A stretch of DNA of 64,000 nucleotides from Octopus sinensis (Eukaryota). The stretch covers positions 150,412,001-150,476,000 of the forward strand of contig NC_042997.1 in the NCBI RefSeq assembly GCF_006345805.1. The letters run 5' to 3'. The notes below the pieces were generated by a model. The model saw only the letters and a program-made list of their open reading frames with translations. It was not told the DNA's origin and searched no databases. The first letter of the stretch is position 1; every line of letters starts with the position of its first letter. Shown piece after piece: positions 1 through 64,000 of the stretch. Position numbers and translations under genes: made by a program.

Positions 1-127
1 GGTCTTTTGCCGAACCGCTAAACACACCAACATCGATTGTCAAGCTATGGTAGGACAAACACAGACACACACTCAGATACATCCACACACAAACACTCAT
101 ACACACGCATACGCGCATATATATATG

Positions 128-161
<34 letters not shown>

Positions 162-346
162 ATATATATTATATATATATATATATATACACGACGGATT
201 CTCTCAGTTTCTGTCTACCACTCACAAGGTTTTGGTCGGTCCGAGGCTATAGTAGAAAACATTTGCTCAAGGTGCCACGCAGTGGAACTGAACGCGGAAC
301 CATGAGGTTGGAAAGAAACCTCTTACCTCACAGCCACGCTGCGCCA
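1..346 (-). mobile_element. tRNA-derived octopus-type SINE with internal (CA)/(TA) tract, cut by the window edge
   Basis: The minus strand begins ggcgcagcgtggctgtgaggtaag...ggttccgcgttcagttcc (Pol III A/B-box-like head). The same body recurs at 12125-12490 and 14480-14760. Confidence 0.8.
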
Positions 347-1402
347 TTGTTTGTTTTCGATTTTGTTGACTGCATAGTATTGTAGGCTCAGTTAGGCACC
401 ATCTGTGAGAGAACTAGCTCCATGACTCAATTCAGTCTGCCAGAAATTTGGAAACGACAGGCTGTATTGCTTGGCATTCGCTGTTTCGCTGTCAATCAGA
501 GGACACTGCAGATGATTCGTAAAACGTTGGATGAGTCTAATGGTGATTACGAAGGTACGGCAGCTCCGAAAACACACTCTGGTCGTTCTGATAAGAAAAG
601 AACTCTTGAATTTGTTTGTGACATGCAGGCCATGAATGATTACGATCCCTCCAAGTCAATCGCGTCCATCTGCCATGGACATGGGAGTGTCTGACTTTAT
701 TGTCAGGCAGCTTATGCATGAAGATATTCAGTATTTCTCATTCAAGATGAGAAAGGGACACTTTTTATTTCAAGCTATCAAGGACAAGAGGAAAGACTGC
801 ACAACGAAGCTTTTGAACAAACTCAAGCATCCAAGCTCCAAAATCCAACCGAACATTCTTTGATTTTACTCACACAAGAAATATTTCGGTCAGGATCAGA
901 TGGTGAACACACAGAACAACCATTGGCGTGTCCTGTCGCCAAAACATGTGCCAAGAATGATAAAAATCAAGCATCCAGTCAATATCATAATGTTGGAGTG
1001 ATCACTAGTGATGGCGACGTTATGTCTCCATTCATCTTCCCACAAGTCGTCAGACTCAACACAGAGGCCTTCCTCAAGTTCCCAGAGGAGGTAGTACTAC
1101 TGGGACAAGTGGGTGGATATTGGACTATGCCACACAAACAGGAGAATACAATCATGGCCATCAGACAATATTTGCGATCACATCCGCCTAACTCCCCAGA
1201 CTGCAACCCTTTTGAATATTATGTGTTGGGTACCGTTGGGGGAGAGACCAACAAAACACCTTGTAACACAAAAGATGAACTGAAGGTAAGGATTATGGCA
1301 GCATTCACCAAATATAAACATGAAAATCGCCCACAAAATTTACAGAAAATTTCGAAGTCGTTTGGAGGCCATAGTTACAGCTAATGGCGATTTTATTGAA
1401 TA
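347..1402 (+). pseudogene. Decayed Tc1/mariner-superfamily (probably DD37D/maT-like) transposase, 5' part
   Basis: Frameshifted ORFs 422-694, 636-863 and 860-1384. Motifs GVITSDGDVMSPFIF and HPPNSPDCNPFEYYVLG...NTKDELK resemble WPPxSPDLNPLDY. Interrupted at 1402. Confidence 0.8.
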
Positions 1403-1956
1403 CTATCAGTATCGCCCGGCGTTGCTCGGGTTTGTAAGGGAAATAATTATATAAGCATTTTTAGAGATGTAAAGTATAATAGCCATCTCAATATGGCTAA
1501 CCACAAAGGGGGAGGGGTGTTACTGTAGCTTTTTACGTTCTGAGATTTAATAATAAATTTTAGAGTGTTACTTCCCTTATATATGTCAAAAATGGATTAA
1601 AAATGGGAAAAATTGATGGTAATTTTTTTTAAAATCATAGACTCATCGTAGACGCGCGCTAATACCCAGACGGTCTCGATATGAATCACGACTAAGATAC
1701 CCGGTTTTGGTTAAACTGCACCGCAAAATGTGGGAGTAGTTAGGAATCTAAATCGTAGGAGACAGACACACAACCTCACTTTTATATATAAAGATTTCCT
1801 CTATTTACATAATTTGAGGTCTCTTTCTTTCTTTTGTTATCTTACTGTTTTTACCAATATACATATATATAATATATATAAATATATATATAGTTACAGA
1901 GATGTACTTGCATAGCAAGTGACTTGATCTGAGATCGTGTGCTGGAACGAAAACAG

Positions 1957-2214
1957 TTGCAGCGTTGAAGGTGTTTATAAGCCATTTAAGAAACACACAA
2001 AAACCGTTAGATTCACTTCAACATTTAAATTTAATTTGTCAAAATATTTTCATCGCTTTGAGACCGCGACCTGTTAGCACGATATTTTTGTCAGTGAACA
2101 GGTCGCGGTCTCAAAGCGACGAAAATTTTTGGCAAATTAAATTTAAATGTTGAAGTGAATGTAACGGTTTTTGTGTGTTTCTTAAATGGCTTACAAACAC
2201 CTTCCACGCTGCAA
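1957..2214. repeat. Fold-back palindrome, ~118-bp arms, 21-nt loop (second copy 4197-4452)
   Basis: ttgcagcgttgaagg...cgacctgtt (to 2075) mirrors aacaggtcg (from 2097)...ccttccacgctgcaa. Confidence 0.9.
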
Positions 2215-3356
2215 TATATATATACACACATATATATATATGTATGTATGTATGTATGTGTGTATATGTGTATGCATGTATGTGTGTGTGTGCGTGTCTG
2301 TGCTTGTGATTGTCCTCCACCACTGCTTGACAACGAATGTTGGTTTGTTTACATCCCTGTCACCTAGTGGTTTGACAAAGGAAACAGATAGAATAAGTAC
2401 AATGCTTACAAAAATAAAACGAGTTGATTCATTAAACTACAATTCTTCAAGGCATTGCCCCAGCATGGCCACAGACCAATGGCTAGAAAAAGCAGAAGAA
2501 TAAAAGAATACATTCTCTGCTTTGGTCTTATGTTCAAGGCATGAGAAAGCTTGAGTTTACATGAGAAGGCCTAACAGACCTGGTAGAAACAGCAGCCAAA
2601 TCTCCCTCAAATCACACCTTACTGTCTTATGTATGTATATATATATGAGCCAATGAGGGGGGGCTCTACATGGTAGCTAGAGCTGGTAGAAATAGCAGCC
2701 AAATTTGCCCCAAATCACACCTTACTGTCTTATCTATGTATATATGTATGTATGAGCCTATGAGGGAGACCCCTACATGGCAGCTAGACCTGGTAGAAAT
2801 AGCAGCCAAATTTCCCCCAAATCACACCTTACTGTCTTATCTCTTATTATAAAAGGCAGATTTTATCTGCCTCCCTTTGGGAGTTATACAAATCTACAAT
2901 ATAGGATTTCTTCAATTACAATTTACCTTGCATTTTTAAGAGTACATTGCATCGCGTCATGCCAGGTCTAGTTTTTAAAATTTAAACTCCAATTAAGCAA
3001 AATTTACAGAAAACTCACATTCTGGTGTGTGTGTCAAATGCTTTTCTTAGTCTGGTTTACAGCACACGCAAACGCACACACACAGTGGGCAACGAATAAA
3101 ATGAAAGTAATTGACTTACTGTAGTGAGTGATTCTTTCACTCTGCCTCCCACTTCCTCTTTCAACAACACAGACACGCAAATATATAAATAAAATTGTAA
3201 GCTAACGTGCGTGTGTGTGAGTGGGTGTGTGGGTGTGCGCGTGTGTGTGTGTGTGAGGGTGCGTGTGTGTGTGTGTGTGTGTGTGGTGCGTGTGCGTGAG
3301 TGTGTGACAGGAAAGTTTTTTACGACGAATATAACACCTATATCCAAGTAGCAGAA

Positions 3357-3840
3357 AGATAAGACAGTAAGGTGTGATTTGAGGGAGATTTGGCTGCTAT
3401 TTCTACCATGTCTAGCTGCCATGTAGGGGTCTCCCTCATAGGCTCATACATACATATATACATAGATAAGACAGTAAGGTGTGATTTGGGGGAAATTTGG
3501 CTGCTATTTCTACCAGGTCTAGCTGCCATGTAGGGGTCTCCCTCATAGGCTCATACATACATATATACATAGATAAGACAGTAAGGTGTGATTTGGGGGA
3601 ATTTGGCTGCTATTTCTACCAGGTCTAGCTGCCATGTAGGGGTCTCCCTCATAGGCTCATACATACATATATACATAGATAAGACAGTAAGGTGTGATTT
3701 GGGGGAAATTTGGCTGCTATTTCTACCAGCTCTAGCTACCATGTAGAGGTCCCCCTCATTGGCTCATATATATATACATACATAAGACAGTAAGGTTGAT
3801 TTGAGGGAGATTTGGCTGCTGTTTCTACCAGGTCTGTTAG
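3357..3840 (-). repeat. ~107-bp minisatellite, about 5 units (mirror: 2576-2839 plus 5009-5225)
   Basis: aagacagtaagg recurs at 3361, 3468, 3575, 3681 and 3784. Confidence 0.92.
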
Positions 3841-4616
3841 GCCTTCTCATGTAAACTCAAGCTTTCTCATGCCTTGAACATAAGACCAAAGCAGAGAATG
3901 TATTCTTTTATTCTTCTGCTTTTTCCAGCCATTGGTCTGTGGCCATGCTGGGGCAATGCCTTGAGGAATTGTAGTTTAATGAATCAACTCGTTTTATTTT
4001 TGTAAGCATTGTACTTATTCTATCTGTTTCCTTTGTCAAACCACTAGGTGACAGGGATGTAAACAAACCAACATTCGTTGTCAAGCAGTGGTGGAGGACA
4101 ATCACAAGCACAGACACGCACACACACACATACATGCATACACATATACACCATACATACATACATACATATATATATATATGGGTGTATATTATATTGC
4201 AGCGTGGAAGGTGTTTGTAAGCCATTTAAGAAACACACAAAAACCGTTACATTCACTTCAACATTTAAATTTAATTTGCCAAAATTTTTCGTCGCTTTGA
4301 GACCGCGACCTGTTCACTGACAAAAATATCGTGCTAACAGGTCGCGGTCTCAAAGCGATGAAAATATTTTGACAAATTAATTTAAATGTTGAAAGAATCT
4401 AACGGTTTTTGTGTGTTTCTTAAATGGCTTATAAACACCTTCAACGCTGCAACTGTTTTCGTTCCAGCACACGATCTCAGATCAAGTCACTTGCTATGCA
4501 AGTACATCTCTGTAACTATATATATATTTATATATATATATATATATATGTATATAGGTAAAAACAGTAAGATAACAAAAGAAAGAAAGAGACCTCAATA
4601 TTATGTAAATAGGAAA

Positions 4617-5008
4617 TCTTTATATATAAAAGTGAGGTTGGTGTCTGTCTCCTACGATTTAGATTCCTAACTACTCCCACATTTTGCGGTGCAGTTTAAC
4701 AAAACCGGGTATCTTATAGTCTGATTCATATCGAGACCGTCTGGGTATTAGCGCGCGTCTACGATGAGTCTACGATTTAAAAAAAAATTTACCATCAATT
4801 TTTCCCATTTTTAATCCATTTTTGACATATATAAGGGAAGTAACTCTCTAAAATGTATTATTAAATCTCAGAACGTAAAAAGCTACAGTAACACCCCTCC
4901 CCCTTTGTGGTTAGCCATATTGAGATGGCTATTATACTTTACATCTCTAAAAATGCTTATATAATTATTTCCCTTACAAACCCGAGCAACGCCGGGCGAT
5001 ACTGCTAG
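4617..5008 (+). mobile_element. Short (~390 bp) non-autonomous Helitron forming the 3' end of the composite; mirror copy at 1403-1794 (-)
   Basis: Has its own 5' terminus A^TCTTTATATATAAAAG at 4617 and a 3' hairpin plus CTAG. Confidence 0.8.
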
Positions 5009-5736
5009 TCTATGTATATATGTATGTATGAGCCTATGAGGGAGACCCCTACATGGGAGCTAAACCTGGTAGAAATAGCAGCCAAATTTCCCCCAAATCA
5101 CACCTTACTGTCTTATCTATGTATATACGTATGTATGAGCCTATGAGGGAGACCCCTACATGGCAGCTAGACATGGTAGAAATAGCAGCCAAATCTCCCT
5201 CAAATCACACCTTACTGTCTTATCTTTCTGCTACATGGATATAGGTGTTATATTCGTCGTAAAAAACTTTCCTGTCACACACTCACGCACACGCACACAC
5301 ACACACACACACACGCACCCTCACACACACACACACACGCACACCCACACACACCCACTCACACACACGCACGCTAGCTTACAATTTTTTTTATATATTT
5401 GCGTGTCTATGTGGAAAGAGGAAGTGGGAGGCAGAGTGAAAGAATCACTCACTACAGTAAGTCAATTACTTTCATTTTATTCGTTGCCCACTGTGTGTGT
5501 GCGTTTGCGTGTGCTGTAAACCAGACTAAGAAAAGCATTTGACACACACACCAGAATGTGAGTTTTCTGTAAATTTTGCTTAACTGGAGTTTACATTTTA
5601 AAAACTGGACCTGGCATGACGCGATGCATTGTACTCTTAAAAATGCAAGGTAAATTGTAATTGAAGAAATCCTATATTGTAGATTTGTATAACTCCCAAA
5701 GGGAGGCAGATAAAATCTGCCTTTTATAATAAGAGA

Positions 5737-5868
5737 TATTTACTCTTTAGTATTTCAAGATACTTTATGTAATTCTGGTAAGTAGCTGTTAAAATAAGAT
5801 GTCAGTATTACTTTAATTTTGTGTTTTTTAGACGACAATTATAGTCGCTCTCTCTTTCCCTCTCTGTA
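5737..5868 (+). mobile_element. Probable 3' end of the Tc1-like element split by the Helitron
   Basis: Rejoining gives ttttattgaata|tatttactctttagtatttcaaga, which reads as continuous sequence after the transposase and ends near ctgta-TA. Confidence 0.6.
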
Positions 5869-5942
5869 TATATACGTATATATATATATATATATATAAT
5901 ATATATATATATATAGATATTATATTAATACACACATACACA

Positions 5943-5990
<48 letters not shown>

Positions 5991-6119
5991 CACACACGCA
6001 TATACTGTATATGCATATATATGTTTATATAAGTATATACATGTGCTGTATTTGTATATGTACATATATATGCTGGATGTATATATATATATATATATAT
6101 TATATGCATACACGTTCGG

Positions 6120-6287
6120 AAATAAATATATACACAGATACCAGCACGTTTGTATTGATATATGAATGTGGGTTTGGGTGTATGTGTGTATGCACACATA
6201 AATATATACACAGAAATAAATATATACACAGATACCAGCACGTTTGTATTGATATATGAATGTGGGTTTGGGTGTATGTGTGTATGC
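6120..6287. repeat. Tandem duplication, ~94-bp period
   Basis: aaataaatatatacacagataccagcacgtttgtattgatatatgaatgtgggtttggg occurs twice. Confidence 0.85.
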
Positions 6288-6310
6288 GAGAGTGATAGAG
6301 ACTGTGTGCG

Positions 6311-6353
<43 letters not shown>

Positions 6354-6899
6354 TAGAGAGATATAGTGAGAGGGAGAGAGAATGAACATTATCACTTAAA
6401 AGGGCATAACACTGATACTAAAATTAAGGTTATTAAACTGTTAAAATACACATCTTGCGCTCTCAACCTAGTAGAAGCGTCAATAATGTTCAGAGCTAAT
6501 GAGGAAGCGATAGCAGCTTTTGAAATGTTGATCGTTCTAGAAAGTCAAGGTATCAGATACAAGACAAAGTGAAAGTCTAAAGGCACTTATTGACAGGTGT
6601 CAAATCAACAAATCTGTCATGTTTTGCACGGACATTGATTCACTACGAGTCACTGCCCAAGTCTCTTCTGGAGCACTAGATGTCGTGGGAAAGAGTGGAT
6701 AAACATTCAAAGAAGTATGTTAACTGATGACATTAAAGAATGAACTAGATACAACATCTTGGTTGATTGTATGCATCAGGAAACTGTGGGATAATGGTCA
6801 GCCGATGCCTTGGCAAAGGGAGGACACCTGGTTGTTCTGATGCATAAAAACACATAGTACAAACATACATGTTATTATATAAATGTATATATATATATA

Positions 6900-7125
6900 T
6901 AGTTAATCCAAACAAGAAAACACAGAAAAAAAGAGAAAAAAACACAGCAACGCGGGGACGTGGAACAATTAATGTATTATTGACGCTCAGGAAAGAAGGG
7001 AAGGAGGGTTTAACGTTTCGAGCGGAGCTCTTCGTCGGAAACACGGAGAAGGAAAGATCCCAAGAAGGGAAGACAGAGGAAAAAATATTTTAGCTGGTGG
7101 TGCTCAAGAGATCACATGTTGAAAG
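6900..7125 (-). mobile_element. Penelope-like pLTR/3' remnant with a mutated hammerhead motif
   Basis: Close paralog of 17055-17265. The minus strand of 7008-7042 reads gttt-CCGACGA-agagctccgctc-GAAAC-gtt-aaac. Flanked by (TA)n. Confidence 0.65.
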
Positions 7126-10100
7126 AACAGATATATATATATAGGTGTGTATATGTGTGTGCATAGATGCGGTGTGAATGTTTGTTTGTTTCTCCGTATC
7201 ATTGTCTACAAGTTGAAATAATTTCTTGTCCCCTTGTGATTATCCTACGTGTGACTTGTTCCCTTGACAGGAAAAAGAAGCCCAAATATATGATAGACAA
7301 AAATTACAGTAGAAAACATTTAAAACAATATGACGGCAGACAAAACAAAACCATAAAGATTAGCAATTGATTGCATGAACATTTTAACGCTAAGTAACAA
7401 ATCGCCTATCTTAAATACATGAAAATATTCCCACACACATTGAAGGGTTGTGTATTTTAGCAATGATTCATTTGAAAAGGACATTGGTACATGAAGTGTT
7501 GCGAAGCAGTAATGATATTATTTTAAAAGATTGAAATGACGGCCAGCTGTTGAAAAAGATGCAGCGTACTGTGACAGTCTACTATGACTGCTGATTGGCA
7601 GTCGGAAACGGCGTGCCAGGTGAATAAGCCAGAGGCGATAAATGGGAACACTGCGATGCCAAAATAAAAATATCAGAAAAGGAATCGAATTGAAAGAATC
7701 AAAGAGATAGAAACGCATCATTTGAAATCAACTGTTCAGATTTAATTCACAGTTTCTTTACATATATACGCTGAGCGAAAAGCGCATGCCTGTTTTGGCA
7801 TCGGCTGACCATTTACTAAGAACCATTGTGTCATCATGAATTCTATAGCACGTCGCTGGTGCCAAATTTAACGAATATGAAATAAAATATATTTCAAAAG
7901 CATAAGATAATAATACCGTGTATCAGATATGGAGACTGTGCTGCATAAGCCCAATTGCGAGTAGAATTCACTATTTAGTTGTTTTTACAAAGCATTGTGA
8001 TTTTTGCAATTTTTCGAGAGAACATATCGGAATGTTGACACAACAAGATCTAGGTTCCTACTTTATAGACACATTAATTATAGTATTCACATTATTAATA
8101 GACGCAACAATTAAAATTATTCAAGCAACTGTTTTACATTGGTGTAGTTTTCTATTTATATAATTTGCTTTACGTAGAGATTGTTCTATGTGAGACAAGT
8201 ATTGTGAGCTGTTGATAGGAGACTATAATTACGTCAGTATTTTCGACTGTGTTCGTCTTCGAGAGCATCATTTAAGCTACTAGGGAAAATTTGAATAGTT
8301 TTTACTTATATTCTAGCAAATACCTATTCCTTATTAACTATGCTGTCTTCATACTATGATTTTAATTCTAATTCAGTTCTGCCTTGACTCCAAACAATAT
8401 ACGGCTATCAACACTTCAACCACGTACAAAATACGTTGTTTTGATACCTAATCTCGATATAATATTTCTTCCACATGCCTCTGCTGTATTTATGATGAAT
8501 AATTTTCTACCGTTAACTCCAGTTCACCAATAATCACTCTTTTAATATTCTGAAGTACTTGCGAAAGAGGGAATGACGTTTTGCAACTTGTCACAAATTC
8601 ACATCAATGGCCCAGTACTGGTAATACCGAAGAAACTCATGTTGTGCCTCACACATTTGCAGAATTACTCTTATTTACGCCCTTTGTTGTATGTCCCTTC
8701 TCCATATGAACTTCCTAAGGCATCATTGATTCAACAAAGAAGCAGTTTTATCAACTCAGATAATACTATAAATTAGTTATCGTGCGATGGATGACAAGCA
8801 CTGGTATGTTTTCTTCAGATCTTGGATAAAAACTGAGTAATTGCCGAGCCAAATTAAGTCCTCTTGCTATCCATATTTCATTGATCTCCATTTCTTATTT
8901 CTACTAACAAGGGACCGTTAAGATATGCGTGCTTACTTCAATGCTTACGATCACGCATGAAAGAGATGTTCTAATCTTATACTCATAGAGTATAATCTAA
9001 CTCCTGACATAAAAACGACCTTTTTGCTTAGAGTATTAGTATTAAATTGGTAGATATCCCTGTCAGCAGAGTATTATTTCTGTAAATCACATTTTTCAAT
9101 TTAAACAAGGTGTTCACGTAGTAACAATATTTAATATGTATCTAGTACGCAACTTGTTCAGACAAATATTACGTTGTGTGAGATTTCATATGTAAGCGAC
9201 GGCAAATTTATTGATTATACTCTATTATACATACAGGCACATATCCATACATAGGTATTCAGGCATACACGTGTGCATGTGTGTGTGTACATGGATCAAC
9301 ACAGTTTGATTCAAATTCGTTGGAACTCTTGAGTTTCAAGCGTGATGCTAGTCATCAGCCATTTTGAATTTGAATGACAGAAGTTGATTGTTATTACTGT
9401 AACGTGGGCTGTGATTAGTCGAGGAGGGTCATGCGGTATCGTGGTTTGATTTTGGCATATGGGTAATGGTTAGTTGGAAAATACCGCATGGTGAAAAGGC
9501 AATTGACCACGTGGAGGACAGGAAATAGACCACGTAGCGACTAGGAAATCGATCAGGTTGTTGGGGATATAGGAAGGAGCGGCATGTGCAAATATAGAGT
9601 TCTGTATGTGGGTGCGTAGAGGTGCTCATATAGTTTGGCGTGCATGTGGATATTGATGCACATATATAAATAAACAAATAAATATAAATACATGTATATG
9701 TATGTGTATGTGTATGCATGTATGTATGTATATATGTATGTATGTATGTATGTATATATTTATGTATGTATGCATGTTTGCATGTATGTATGTATGTATG
9801 TATGTATGTATGTATGTATGTATGTATGTATGTATGTAGCAATTATTTTACCGGAATGTGTTTTCATAACAAAGTTACAGTTTTGTAGTGATTTGCATAG
9901 TCGAAAGAATGATTTCTCTTTATATGATAATATGGAACCACAAAAAAAAAAACAACATAAACAAATAAATAAATACTAACAAAAATAGCGTTGCTAGCGA
10001 GCAGTAGTAAATACATACTCACAAAGAAACAACCATAAACACAACAATAAACACAAATAAATATGAACAAGCATAGAAAATACAGACTCAAATGAGTAAA

Positions 10101-37869: not shown

Positions 37870-39080
<1,211 letters not shown>

Positions 39081-41110
39081 TGAGCATAGTGCAGCTGAAA
39101 TGCCGCACACAACTACTCGAGCTCGAGGAACATGCACTTATTTTGGTCCACTAAAACCGAATTGTGGATTTTTTCCATGTTGTGTCTCTGCCAGTCAGGT
39201 CCGTCTAGCGGCTTTCCTTCGCTCGTTTCTAAGAACGTGCATTTTAATTCAGACTATGATTCCTTCGTGCTTAGTGTCGAAGAATTTTTCCAGGGCCAAT
39301 GGCACAGATAACCCGTCGGTGCTGATGCATTTTCTAAACGGGTCTCCTAAGATTCGAAATTTCCTTCCATTCTATTTATATCTATCGCTAATGCCTTACT
39401 AAATGTGATGGTGTATATTATTATGCGTTTTCGTTTGTTGAGATATTTGTAATGTTAGTGGTGTCTGCAATTTTGTTGGTGTACAATGTGTGAGTATGCG
39501 ACTGCCTGTTGGCTTCAGTGTATCCTCTTCTTATCTCTTCATTTTTAGTATTTTATTCCACTTCTTATTTTGTAGTTTTCTTTTCTTTTTCCTTTTACCA
39601 GGATCCATTTTGGTGGTTTCCCAAACTGCCTTCCTCGCTAGACGAGTTTTCGCAGTCGGAGAAATCTGTTACTTGAGAGAGATATGTCTGCACAGTCACT
39701 TATCACTATGTTAGCGGCCTGGTCGACTGATGTCGACTGATGTGTGTGTGTGTGTGTATGGGGTATCTCTCGGTTGAAACGGTGTGGGTGATATTTTTGT
39801 TTCTCTCAGGTATGCCACTAGTGATTGATGTTAGTTTGGTATGAATTTCTCTTGCTGCACCTTCTGTTGATACTTCTGTTCCTTTGGATGTTGCTGCACT
39901 TGGCCTTGGTGTTGTACATCAATGTACAGGACCTTCTCTTATATCTTTAATTCGACATGCGAAGCAGTTAATGCAGACACAGTTTTCTTTTCTTTTTCCG
40001 TTTTCTTCCCTCATTCCTTTCAATCAAAGTGCGTAGATCCGAAACGACAGGCTTTTCGTTTTTCCTGAGCGACAAACTTATACACCTTGTTTATTATTCC
40101 ATCAACCGTCTCTGTCGTCTTTTCATTTTTTGTTATTTGTGCATTTGAAACACACACACACACACACACACACGTATGTACATATTTCTGATTGAGTGAC
40201 AGAAGGAGAGAGAGAGATAAAAAGAGAAAGGAAGAAAGAAAAGAAGGAAGAGTGCAAGAAAGAAACAAGAAGGACGGAAAGAAAGAGACAGACAGACAGA
40301 ATACTATGAGCTCTGGTGATATATTTAAGTGGTGCACGTGTTTAAGTCATTGATGCCTACTTACGTACGTGCCTATTGACCTTAATGTACGTCCATATAC
40401 AATCGTCATCAATAGTTACAATTTTTCAGCTGCTTCTCTTTATTTCCCCAAATCCTTATCATCATCATTATTTAACACCTTTCCTAGATACATTATCTCT
40501 CTGATATTATTTTACTCTAATTCACATTGTAGCCACTATATCCTCTCCAATAGCGACAACTCTGTCAAAGGTAGAAACGTACAATAGCATTCTTACACTA
40601 CAGGTTGTTTTAATAATCTTACGAAAAACATATCTGTCTCCAAATGTCTCCCATGCTGTGATAATAAAATAAGGAATGGATTATGTTACTATGTACAAAA
40701 ATCTGTTACCAAATATTTGTTTGATAATGCAATCTCAAATCTACACGCCCAATATGTGTGTTTATCAATTAAGACGATGTGTACCTGAAATAAACTAATA
40801 TACCTGCATGTCTGTTTACTTTTATATATGTACACTTAAATTCACACTCGCGTGTGCACTCGCATTTGTGCGTATAACAGGCACGCATGCGTACGCAGAG
40901 ATATTAGTGTATGTCTGTATGTATATTTTCGCTTTGGGCTCTCAACTAATAATTAATAAATGTAGAGGTGCTCTCGAGATAAAATCTTCTTAGGCATTTT
41001 AAATCTAGTAGAGTCCATCCCTCTGCAGTTTTAAAATCAGTTGATCTCTTCTAGAATGAGAAAAAGAAAGAGAAAGAATGACAGTGAGGAAATACTATGT
41101 TTGTGTGTGT

Positions 41111-53479: not shown

Positions 53480-53990
53480 AAAAATAATGTTCGTTTACAT
53501 TTACGTATGAAGTATTTTCGTAGTCCATCTATTTTCAAAAATTCTATACAAACGCAGGAGGAGGTATGTAGCGAGTAATTATAGTTAAGTCTTTAACTTT
53601 ATTTCATACAGTAACGCTAATCCTAACTCTAAAACTCTAACCCTAACCCTAAAACCCTAACCCTAACCATAAAATCCTAAAGCTAAACCAGTACAAACGC
53701 ACGAACTATCTCATAAGTAACAGTGATAAACGAAATATACACCGCCGGAAGTTGCTATTGACAAACAACAGCAGTAATTTGATTCAGCTGAATACACGTC
53801 ATTGATTGGTTGAAATTACCGAAATACGACAACTTTAACACGAAATAACTTTGAAAGTAGGTTTTCTCAACAACACTAAGAGTAAAAGATGTTTTATATG
53901 ACACATCCTACCAGTGTCTGAAGTTTTAATGTGTTTAGTTACAAAAAAGTATTTCTCGATCTGCCGTTGAAAGGGAAAATATCCAATTCA
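53480..53990. mobile_element. Non-autonomous repeat with a short internal (CCCTAA)n tract
   Basis: ctaaccctaaccctaaaaccctaaccctaacc at ~53635-53668. Boundaries approximate, family not identified. Confidence 0.45.
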
Positions 53991-60780: not shown

Positions 60781-60929
60781 ATTCAGAAAAAAAAACACCC
60801 ATAATTCATCTGAAACTATAATTTTTTTTAAAATGCGCTAAATGTAGAAAATTTCCGATTTTTCCAATGCCCAGCCACAAATAACTGCATGGAATCGGCG
60901 GCCATGTTACACTTTGAATATAAATTTTA

Positions 60930-62090
60930 AATATTTGGGGAAAATTTTCAAAATATTTTTCTAAAATTATTAGGGAAAATTTTCCAAAAATTTTTCCAAA
61001 ATTATTAGGGAAAATTTTCATAAAATTTTTGTGGAAAATTTTCATAAAATTTTTCTAAAATTTTAGGGAAAATTCTCAAAAATTTTTGCGGAAAATTTTC
61101 AAAAAATTTTAATGAAATTTTGGGGAAAATTTCAAAAAAATTTTGGTTAAATATATGGGGAAAATTTGCAAAATATTGTTCTGAAATTTTGGGTAACATT
61201 TTCAAAAAATTTTTCTAAAATTTTCGGGAAAATTTTCAAATAATCTTTTTTTAATTTTGAGAGAAAATTGTCATAAATATTTTTCTAAAATTTTTAGGGA
61301 AAATTTTGAGAAAATTTATCAAAAATTTCTGCGGAAAATTTTCTAAAAATTCTTCAAAATGTTTAGGGGGAAATTTTCCAAAAATTTTTTCTAAAATCTA
61401 GGGGAATTTAATAGAAATTTTTCTAAAACTCTGGGAAAAATTTTCAAAAAACTTTTCAAAGCTTTTGAGGAAAATTGTCAAAAAATTTTCAAAAATTTTG
61501 GGTAAAATTTTCAAAAAATTTTTGTAACATTTTGGTGAAAACTTTTCAAAAAATTTTTCAAAAATTATTAGGGTGAATTTTCAAAAAATTTTTGGGGAAA
61601 ATTTTCAAAAAATTTTTTAAAAATTGGGGGGAAAATTTTTAAAAGATTTTTGAAAAATTTTTGGGGAAAATTTTCCGAAAATTTTTCAAGAGTTTTTGGG
61701 AAAAATTTTCCGAAAATTTTTCAAAAGGTTTTGGGGAAAATTTTCCCAAAATTTTTCAAGAACTCTTGCGGAAAATTTTCGAAAAATTTTTCTAAAATAT
61801 TGGGGAAAATTTTCAAAAAATTTTTATGAAATTTTGGGGAAAATTTTCAAAAAATTTTGGTTAAATATATGGGGAAAATTTTCTAAAAATTCTTCTAAAA
61901 TTTTGGGGAAAATTTTCTAAAAATTCTTCCAAAATTTTGGGGAAAATTTCCCAAAAACTTTTCTAAAATTTTGGGGAAAATTTTTAAAAAATTTTTAAAA
62001 AATTATGGGGGAAAATTTTCATAAACATTTTTCTAAAATTGTCATAAGCATTTTTCTAAAATTTTGGGGTTAAATTTTCGAAAGATTTCT
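60930..62090. repeat. Degenerate ~33-35-bp satellite made of ~11-bp AnTn subunits
   Basis: Consensus is roughly GGGGAAAATTTT-CAAAAAATTTTT-CTAAAATTTT, repeated over ~1.15 kb. Confidence 0.9.
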
Positions 62091-62662: not shown

Positions 62663-62712
62663 CTAGCAGAGATTCAATTGAATAATTATAATTTTCTGTT
62701 ATATATATATAT

Positions 62713-62760
<48 letters not shown>

Positions 62761-64000
62761 GTATATATATATGTATATTAATATAAATACATGACAGTAC
62801 ATGAAGTTTGTTAAAAAAAGGGGATCATGTATATACCTCCTGGCTGTTGAGATTATAACACCTCGTTGTAAACAATGTTCCTTGTTTTTCCTTGTTGAGC
62901 ATATACAAAAAGTTTTCTTTTGGTTCCTACTCTTGAGCAGCCAACATACAGTTGCCCATGCGAGAAGCAGGGCTCTTCCTAGAGAAGACCAGCTACAGAG
63001 AGGGTTTGACCCTAAGATTTGAGATTTGTTAATGGACATGGCAGAGCTGACACGAAGGAGGAAATGAAGTCTTCTAAATGTAAATTGAATTTCTGCTCCT
63101 GATGGAGTAAGAGGAATTCTTGGAATAAAGACGTCATCACCTTTTCCACATCCAGAAAGAATGATCGCCTCGATAACGTGTGTCATCATTTTCTTTATCA
63201 CCATTCTTGGTGGTACCAGATTGCGGAGTAGCATTAAAGGAGTTCCAATTTTAAGTGCTAATATGTGTGGAGGTAGACCAGGAGGCTCCAGTGAATTGAG
63301 AAATTCAGGAAGATAGTTCACAACTTCATTTCTATCTGGAATTGTATAAACAGACTTGTAAGTGTGTATAGTGCCGGGAAGAGAATGCATTAGCTGTTGA
63401 TTAATTTTGTTAACAGCGACGTTTTTTGGAGCTAATATTGCTCTTTTCCACAGCCAATTGTGATTTTGGTAGTTTTGTGTGAAGTTGGGAAAGACTTCGT
63501 TTTTGAGGTCATCTACAAAATTAACAACAGAGGAAAATGGCCACAATTCCATTTGTCCTGCGGCATCGAGAGGCATCACCTTCACCAAGTGTCAAGATGT
63601 TCTGTGCAAACTTTGTGGACATTTTGTCGCCGTGTAGCTGAGCTCTCATGTTAGTGGTGAGACTGAGGATTGTAACATGATGTCACAGGTGGAGACTTTA
63701 AGCATGCTTGGACTTCATTTGCTCTGGTGCCTTTGGGAATGACAGGATGAGTTTGCCTGAAATCACCTGACAACAGAAGCGTTACACCTCCCATTGGAGC
63801 CTGAGAGTCTCGGATGTCTTTCAGGGCTCTATCTAATGCTTTCAAAGCTCCCTTGTGAGCCATAGTGCACTCATCTCAGAAAATTAGATGACACATTTTA
63901 AGTACTTGTCCCTTATCTGAGCTTTTGTTGATGTTGCATGAAGGAATTTCGGATGCTGCTAAATTGAGAGTAGTTTAAAAGTTGAGTGTGCTGTCCTGCC
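62663..64000 (-). pseudogene. Helitron PIF1-like helicase domain, frameshifted, continuing beyond the window
   Basis: ALDRALKDI...PMGGVTLLLSGDFRQTHPVIP, RAILAPKN, PEFLNSLEPPGLPPHILALKIGTPLMLLRNL, FIPRIPL, AMSINKSQ. Candidate CTAG terminus at 62663-62666. Confidence 0.9.

Follow-up and report, generated by a model that had tools for sequence, protein, structure and literature searches.

The window analysed here, a 64,000-nucleotide stretch of the Octopus sinensis genome, contains a non-autonomous Helitron of 2,169 bp (the guest) that lies inverted within a sister copy (the host, 2,165 bp once the guest is removed) at an A^T dinucleotide without target duplication. With a probability of roughly 0.6, the guest was placed there by a shared RepHel transposase that integrates new copies at, or just next to, residents with which it is engaged. 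A broader claim is put forward more tentatively, at somewhat less than even odds: the Helitron clan as a whole may home to residents opened by its own transposase, leaving a polar footprint, "tandems" that are serial insertions and recurring near-perfect multi-kilobase palindromes. By polar footprint we mean insertions at interior hot sites, at the nick site and, on the opposite strand, immediately before the 5' end, with nothing past the 3' end.

Architecture of the nested pair

The four junctions that an earlier note on this DNA had placed, with TC at 5736 and 2840 and termini at 1403 and 5008, are correct to the base (Table 1). On the plus strand the guest starts as ...CTGTCTTA|TCTCTTATT at 2840 and ends as ...GATACTGCTAG|TCTATG at 5008; on the minus strand the host reads ...GAGTAAATA|TCTCTTATT at 5736 and ...GATACTGATAG|TATTC at 1403. 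The guest is inserted after host position 728, and its removal leaves the reverse-complement twin that the same note had described, each copy having five units of a 107-bp minisatellite; the alignment of the two comprises 2126 matches, 26 mismatches and 30 gap columns. Insertion at A^T without duplication likewise holds for both copies, the host site being uninterrupted in two paralogues of the flanking older repeat (L037, L077), which read across it with neither duplication nor loss. The note had named junctions away from the TC and CTAG ends as one observation that would count against nesting; all junctions were examined, and the inverted arms stop exactly at these ends. All four flanks are distinct, and the geometry is interlocked (A-B-A'-B') rather than that of a simple palindrome. 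A reading of 1403-5736 as a foldback or TIR element was rejected because the repeats are interlocked, the two ends are not complementary and there is no duplication. Taken alone, the locus is an ordinary nested transposon.

One detail needed correction. The host 3' end, described as a hairpin followed by ATAG, has the sequence claimed, but ATAG is a private C>A change from CTAG that is absent from other haplotypes (0/76), and the hairpin is weak (-4.5 kcal/mol, z about -1.0 and -1.4). It spans 16 nt, ends 12 nt short of the element end and is conserved in the autonomous partner.

Table 1. Coordinates of the nested Helitrons, their parts and the flanking repeat (LTS, 5' terminal sequence; RTS, 3' terminus)
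Feature	Position	Strand	Remarks
Guest, composite non-autonomous Helitron, subfamily 7	2840..5008	+	A^T insertion, no target duplication
Host 5' part, 728 bp	5009..5736	-	TC start at 5736
Host 3' part, 1,437 bp	1403..2839	-	hairpin and ATAG end at 1403
Guest LTS	2840..2869	+	exact 30-mer 2,569 times in genome; also starts autonomous RepHel element L255
Host LTS	5707..5736	-	
Guest RTS	4981..5008	+	weak hairpin 4981-4996, then CTAG; last 15-mer 25,494 times in genome
Host RTS	1403..1430	-	hairpin 1430-1415, then ATAG
Guest 107-bp minisatellite array	3357..3835	+	
Host minisatellite left of guest	2576..2839	-	ends at hot-spot A; window plus strand reads CTGTCTTA^TCTATG
Host minisatellite right of guest	5009..5225	-	hot-spot T first
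Guest cargo, MITE-like internal palindrome, 256 bp	4197..4452	.	host twin at 1957-2214
Internal relic 5' end (TCTTTATATATAAAAG...) and 3' module, ~390 bp	4617..5008	+	
Older dispersed repeat, left of host	1251..1402	+	paralogues L037, L077, ~79% identical
Older dispersed repeat, right of host	5737..5850	+	joined to left side in paralogues

The cargo includes, besides the minisatellite, the MITE-like palindrome and, at 4617, a relic internal 5' end. The module from 4617 to 5008 is likely to be an older short Helitron that gave the composite its 3' end; at another locus (L144), a free-standing 394-bp relative follows the element. In the flanking older repeat, which may be Tc1/mariner-like, the ORFs 386-691 and 722-1381 had no Pfam match over the cut-off, and an Rfam search of window positions 1-8000 gave 0 hits.

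Long spacers disfavour cruciform extrusion. The two stems of the locus cross each other and have spacers of 514-1437 bp, including loops of 730 bp and 1,437 bp, so that the cruciform substrate proposed in the earlier note is unlikely here on general grounds. Pairs of copies that stand head-to-head elsewhere in the genome, with spacers of 0-11 bp, are better hairpin substrates than this locus. As the note suggested, the arms may also form long dsRNA, a putative A-to-I editing substrate; none of the sequencing runs listed as containing the locus is recorded as RNA.

The Helitron family and its autonomous partner

Genome-wide, the LTS has ~3,300 occurrences at the 12-mer level, and 3' ends outnumber 5' ends about 8- to 10-fold. 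The 150 elements that we could delimit cluster into 29 groups, or subfamilies, which share their ends and differ in their interiors. Guest and host both belong to subfamily 7, which accounts for 29 of the 150 delimited elements and 6 of 72 unselected copies. Genome searches, which the earlier note had suggested, showed that the 2-kb composite makes up a subfamily of ~560 dispersed copies, most of them 0.3-1% from the column majority, and thereby ruled out a composite private to this locus.

RepHel frames proved to be numerous in a family search of the genome, and the exact LTS starts three of the seven regions fetched. Among these, L255 is an intact element of 6,619 bp with an identical LTS 30-mer and an RTS that differs at 3 of 28 positions; its unbroken frame of 1556 aa matches PF14214 (Helitron_like_N, 1e-55) and PF05970 (PIF1, 1e-64) and contains HAH and YICKY motifs and a Walker A motif. 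L255 is the likely mobiliser of subfamily 7. The assignment of both copies to the Helitrons is borne out by the TC start, the CTAG end, the 3' hairpin, A^T insertion without duplication, dispersed copies with sharp ends and the RepHel partner. Helentrons (DINE-1) are defined by a TT target and subterminal inverted repeats, and were ruled out because this family targets A^T and has TC and CTAG ends.

Insertions at resident 5' ends and at a minisatellite site

To obtain expected numbers of insertions, we fitted a logistic target model to 65 solo A^T sites, drawn from the 100 copies that come first on contig 1, and to 20,000 of 76,203 background AT sites; its cross-validated AUC is 0.91, to be read with a small training set, a few sites from duplicated loci and a rare LTS-like motif that such a set cannot teach. 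In a whole-genome pattern count, head-to-head pairs with spacers of 0-11 bp were found at 22 loci, of which 20 are independent (two are duplicates, and one of the remaining 20 has a tip-only partner). The model expects 0.03-0.05 such pairs, and 0.35-0.9 when calibrated on the rate of spaced head-to-tail pairs. Tail-to-tail pairs over the same spacer range were seen once against 3.6 expected, which shows that under-prediction is no general feature of the model. Head-to-tail pairs number 59, including 46 without any spacer; the 13 spaced ones compare with 1.1-1.5 expected and are thus themselves ~10-fold over the model, which indicates that regional clustering contributes.

Most of the neighbours that were classified belong to different subfamilies. 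In 17 independent head-to-head pairs both elements could be delimited; 13 of these join different subfamilies, which excludes fold-back artefacts for such pairs. In the four same-subfamily pairs the partners rank 1, 1, 2 and 2 in closeness to each other (0.22% divergence in L098, 0.26% in L208), which points to some re-insertions in cis or to later conversion or homogenisation. A sample of 13 of the 46 zero-spacer head-to-tail junctions, taken from the top of the list, contains 10 mixed junctions, one same-subfamily junction and two unclassified ones; heterodimeric circles could be an alternative source of the mixed junctions. Two further impressions were discarded. A head-to-head share of ~10% among BLAST top hits reflects ranking bias, as 100 position-ordered copies contain one such pair within 200 bp, and systematic conversion of the 5' arms in mixed head-to-head pairs is contradicted by mismatches that show no consistent drop.

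The host site itself is used repeatedly. The 32-mer of the inner junction is present at four loci, all of them inverted insertions into the same minisatellite A^T of subfamily 7 hosts, and the three other guests belong to subfamilies 13, 16 and 16. Including one 16-nt LTS tip, this A^T is occupied at five loci, where 0.02 are expected from the target model over 875 intact sites. Insertions on the same strand and no more than 14 bp away were found at 14 loci (11 extended guests and three LTS tips of 12-16 nt), against 0.10-0.14 expected. The search for other nested copies that the earlier note had called for therefore gave a positive answer. Both host ends were found at eight of the 14 loci; the hosts are all of subfamily 7, and the guests are of subfamilies 7, 13, 16, 16, 18, 16, 11 and 1. 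The guest comes from another subfamily in seven of the eight complete cases, so that the family is, as a rule, targeted in trans. These counts cover inverted guests only and say nothing on orientation preference; the 100 position-ordered copies include three clear nests, all in the same orientation. Since guests and host units vary among loci, mobility of the nested unit as a single element was rejected. Of the 12 positions of the hot-site sequence, TCTATGTATATA, 8 match the LTS; by such mimicry the site may be attractive through its sequence alone.

Origin of the nested copies

In the Helraiser system, RepHel is described as nicking the plus strand at the LTS, after which one strand is peeled off and circles form that integrate at A^T (PMC4778049, PMC5876387), and HUH enzymes are reported to cleave single-stranded DNA only (PMC4778049). 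Because HUH nucleases cut only single strands, resident DNA that has been opened would be a ready target. Read from end products only, the proposed course is that RepHel would bind and nick the 5' end of a resident and unwind it toward the 3' end, so that the engaged resident would expose single strands from just upstream of the LTS through the RTS. The opened stretch would comprise the nick site, a few upstream bases on the opposite strand and AT-rich interior sites, and an incoming circle of any subfamily could integrate there. A guest of the same subfamily, expected in about one of 8-12 draws, that arrives in the opposite direction would generate interlocked long inverted repeats such as those at 1403-5736.

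The earlier note had offered two routes, local re-insertion and targeting of the element's own family. Whereas the second is supported genome-wide, the locus itself decides neither for nor against the first, in which the host was peeled, circularised and re-integrated on its own other strand, making the host the mother and the guest the daughter. That both copies come from a subfamily with so small a share of unselected copies and have equal numbers of minisatellite units fits such an origin, as do the minority alleles 223G and 1520T common to both, a joint haplotype found in one of the 20 unselected copies typed at both positions, and the closeness of the same-subfamily head-to-head partners elsewhere. 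However, position 1520 is a CpG site and the allele is present on both 223 backgrounds, and guest and host share no private allele, having ~6 guest-only and ~10 host-only changes. They rank only 6th-10th of 28 for each other, and in a set enriched for guest look-alikes the host is surpassed in closeness to the guest by 20 of 78 copies. The prevalence of other-subfamily guests at the minisatellite region also speaks against re-insertion in cis, as does the report that 701 Helraiser events included no local hopping (PMC4778049). We regard a mother-daughter relation as unlikely.

It is less likely still that sequence preference accounts for the pattern without any bound protein, RepHel simply favouring A^T with an AT-rich, LTS-like run that residents happen to supply. 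Such a preference exists: 70 of 72 unselected copies target A^T, and A or T fills nearly every position from +7 to +12, as in Helraiser. Relic 5' ends of other Helitrons likewise harbour guests (L106, L111, L144, L187, L066), and the GC-rich 3' hairpin could depress tail-to-tail counts. But the downstream flank of a head-to-head newcomer is ordinary flanking DNA and not LTS, and head-to-head pairs exceed the target model 400-700 times and still at least 20 times when the expected rate is calibrated on spaced head-to-tail pairs. Moreover, the model gives the minisatellite hot site a weight of only 4.2, less than that of at least 19 of the element's 407 AT sites.

Regional hot spots or survival bias, by which copies accumulate where insertion is tolerated and neutral and nests arise as a by-product, are already disfavoured and very improbable: copy density is indeed uneven along contig 1 and the spaced head-to-tail excess is of this kind, yet even a 20-fold regional factor leaves P = 7e-19 for the 20 head-to-head pairs and ~1e-4 for the 11 minisatellite nests, and tail-to-tail pairs, which should be lifted too, were seen once.

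An assembly artefact, in which the inverted copy stems from a chimeric or fold-back long read, is the least credible account: several single-base indels between guest and host do resemble consensus errors, but both copies have private substitutions, the arms end at TC and CTAG between differing flanks, the geometry is interlocked and on other chromosomes the same junction occurs with different guests. Suggestive support for the structure comes from short-read contigs of other samples, none of which spans the nest, a 146-nt contig (run X5) being identical to 1282-1427, including the host's private 3' base, and a 50-nt contig (run X2) spanning the guest 5' junction without mismatch; both have a short side of 25 letters, below the tool's bar of 31, and the inner junction, common to four loci, makes a match there not locus-specific. 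A depth of zero at 1324-1377 in two short-read runs was given no evidential weight.

The octopus family resembles HelibatN/Helraiser in its 5'-TC and hairpin-CTRR-3' ends, A^T insertion without duplication, AT-rich 3' flank, RepHel partner and captured cargo, and differs in that resident 5' ends and an internal site are hot, whereas Helraiser assays are reported to have shown no local hopping, and the passages covered do not describe resident termini as targets (PMC4778049, PMC5876387). Maize Helitrons are said to insert into other Helitrons or close to them (Yang and Bennetzen 2009, as cited in PMC12477314 and PMC3288121), so that there, too, family members cluster and nest, and nests can give elements with several termini. 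As cited, this is a statement of proximity, whereas the octopus data resolve where and on which strand guests insert and which end is involved (5' yes, 3' no, one recurrent internal A^T). At maize r1, dissimilar Helitrons adjoin in a zero-spacer CTAG|TC junction, for which insertion at the A^T of the resident's 5' end is one reading (Du et al. 2008, PMC2267711). Whereas that is one case of unresolved order, the octopus offers the 46 such junctions, mostly mixed where sampled, together with the 20 head-to-head pairs. Rolling-circle tandem arrays are on record for bat and plant Helitrons (cited in PMC5876387, PMC2267711) and show perfect RTS-LTS junctions as well; a minority here are indeed same-subfamily tandems (L108, L113, L265), but most sampled junctions join different subfamilies and hence are no simple concatemers.

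In the literature surveyed, which was covered at the level of listings and abstracts, we found neither an LTS-anchored head-to-head excess nor a recurrent internal site, and the passages covered of PMC13286980 and PMC13282606 contain no kin-targeting data. Within that literature, nesting of Helitrons in their kin is already known from maize, and the base-level polarity anchored at the 5' end and the recurrent internal site appear to be new.

How Helitron transposases that act on single-stranded DNA only find targets in a double-stranded genome is an open question. Target finding becomes testable in the octopus, where the family has ~3,300 recent copies, its RepHel is intact and the hot spots at its own 5' end are resolved to the base. 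Perfect head-to-tail junctions alone are no proof of rolling-circle concatemers, and nesting of kin is a route to long inverted repeats. If new copies are indeed integrated at residents opened by RepHel, the polar footprint would read out the target-capture step in vivo, and many "rolling-circle tandems" would be serial insertions.

Head-to-head palindromes and duplicated loci

Among the loci elsewhere in the genome that we compared with the nest in the window, L098 and L208 are near-perfect palindromes (see the table). The 2.17-kb arms of L098, with 11 mismatches in 2,159, are separated by a spacer of 2 bp, and those of L208 (1.17 kb; 0.26%) by one of 11 bp. These two loci are the top candidates for re-insertion in cis or conversion, and likewise for hairpin formation. 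Shared flanks at nearby positions on one contig were seen for L203/L204, L206/L207, L009/L010 and L177-L179, which represent either segmental duplications or assembly duplicates.

Coordinates of the palindromes, the autonomous element, insertion points and other repeats
Feature	Position	Strand	Details
L098 palindrome	2344-6689 (G000:C17:16.72 Mb)		same-subfamily head-to-head pair
L208 palindrome	1826-4174		same-subfamily head-to-head pair
L255 autonomous Helitron	G000:C5:105383300-105393200, 8288-1670	minus	full-length, 6,619 bp; family LTS and RepHel frame
L111 insertion at relic/foreign 5' end	3244
L187 insertion at relic/foreign 5' end	3001
L106 insertion at relic/foreign 5' end	3330
Helitron helicase 3' fragment	window 62664-63600	minus	Pif1 2B domain, 2.7e-10
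Mariner transposase remnant	window 38131-39400		HTH_48 and Transposase_1 matches
A/T-block satellite, degenerate	window 60929-62040		34-35-bp unit, ~32 copies
TAACCC-like repeats	window 53612-53680		short interstitial run

Terminal junctions and insertion points

Lone tips of the 5' terminal sequence (LTS), 12-16 nt long, occupy A^T sites at L284 (3548-3563), L290, L292 and L201 and are likely aborted integrations. At L048, L066, L118, L188 and L292, a full element directly follows an LTS tip of 13-49 nt, and past its 3' end the host sequence, where readable, does not resume; these arrangements possibly reflect restart events or imprecise circles. Six loci (L145, L157, L188, L260, L263 and L269) carry junctions of CTAG with TCTTATT, the LTS minus its first two bases, as if nicking had occurred at its second TC. 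The 5' ends of relic or foreign Helitrons served as exact insertion points, on the same strand, at L111, L187, L106, L144 and L066, with one identical site used by different guests in L111 and L187.

Helitron coding sequences

The helicase fragment in the window is followed by a CTAG end with a different type of 3' terminal sequence (RTS). The LTS of L255 is that of the window family, and its RepHel (transposase) frame extends over 1556 aa without breaks. L255 is a candidate active element.
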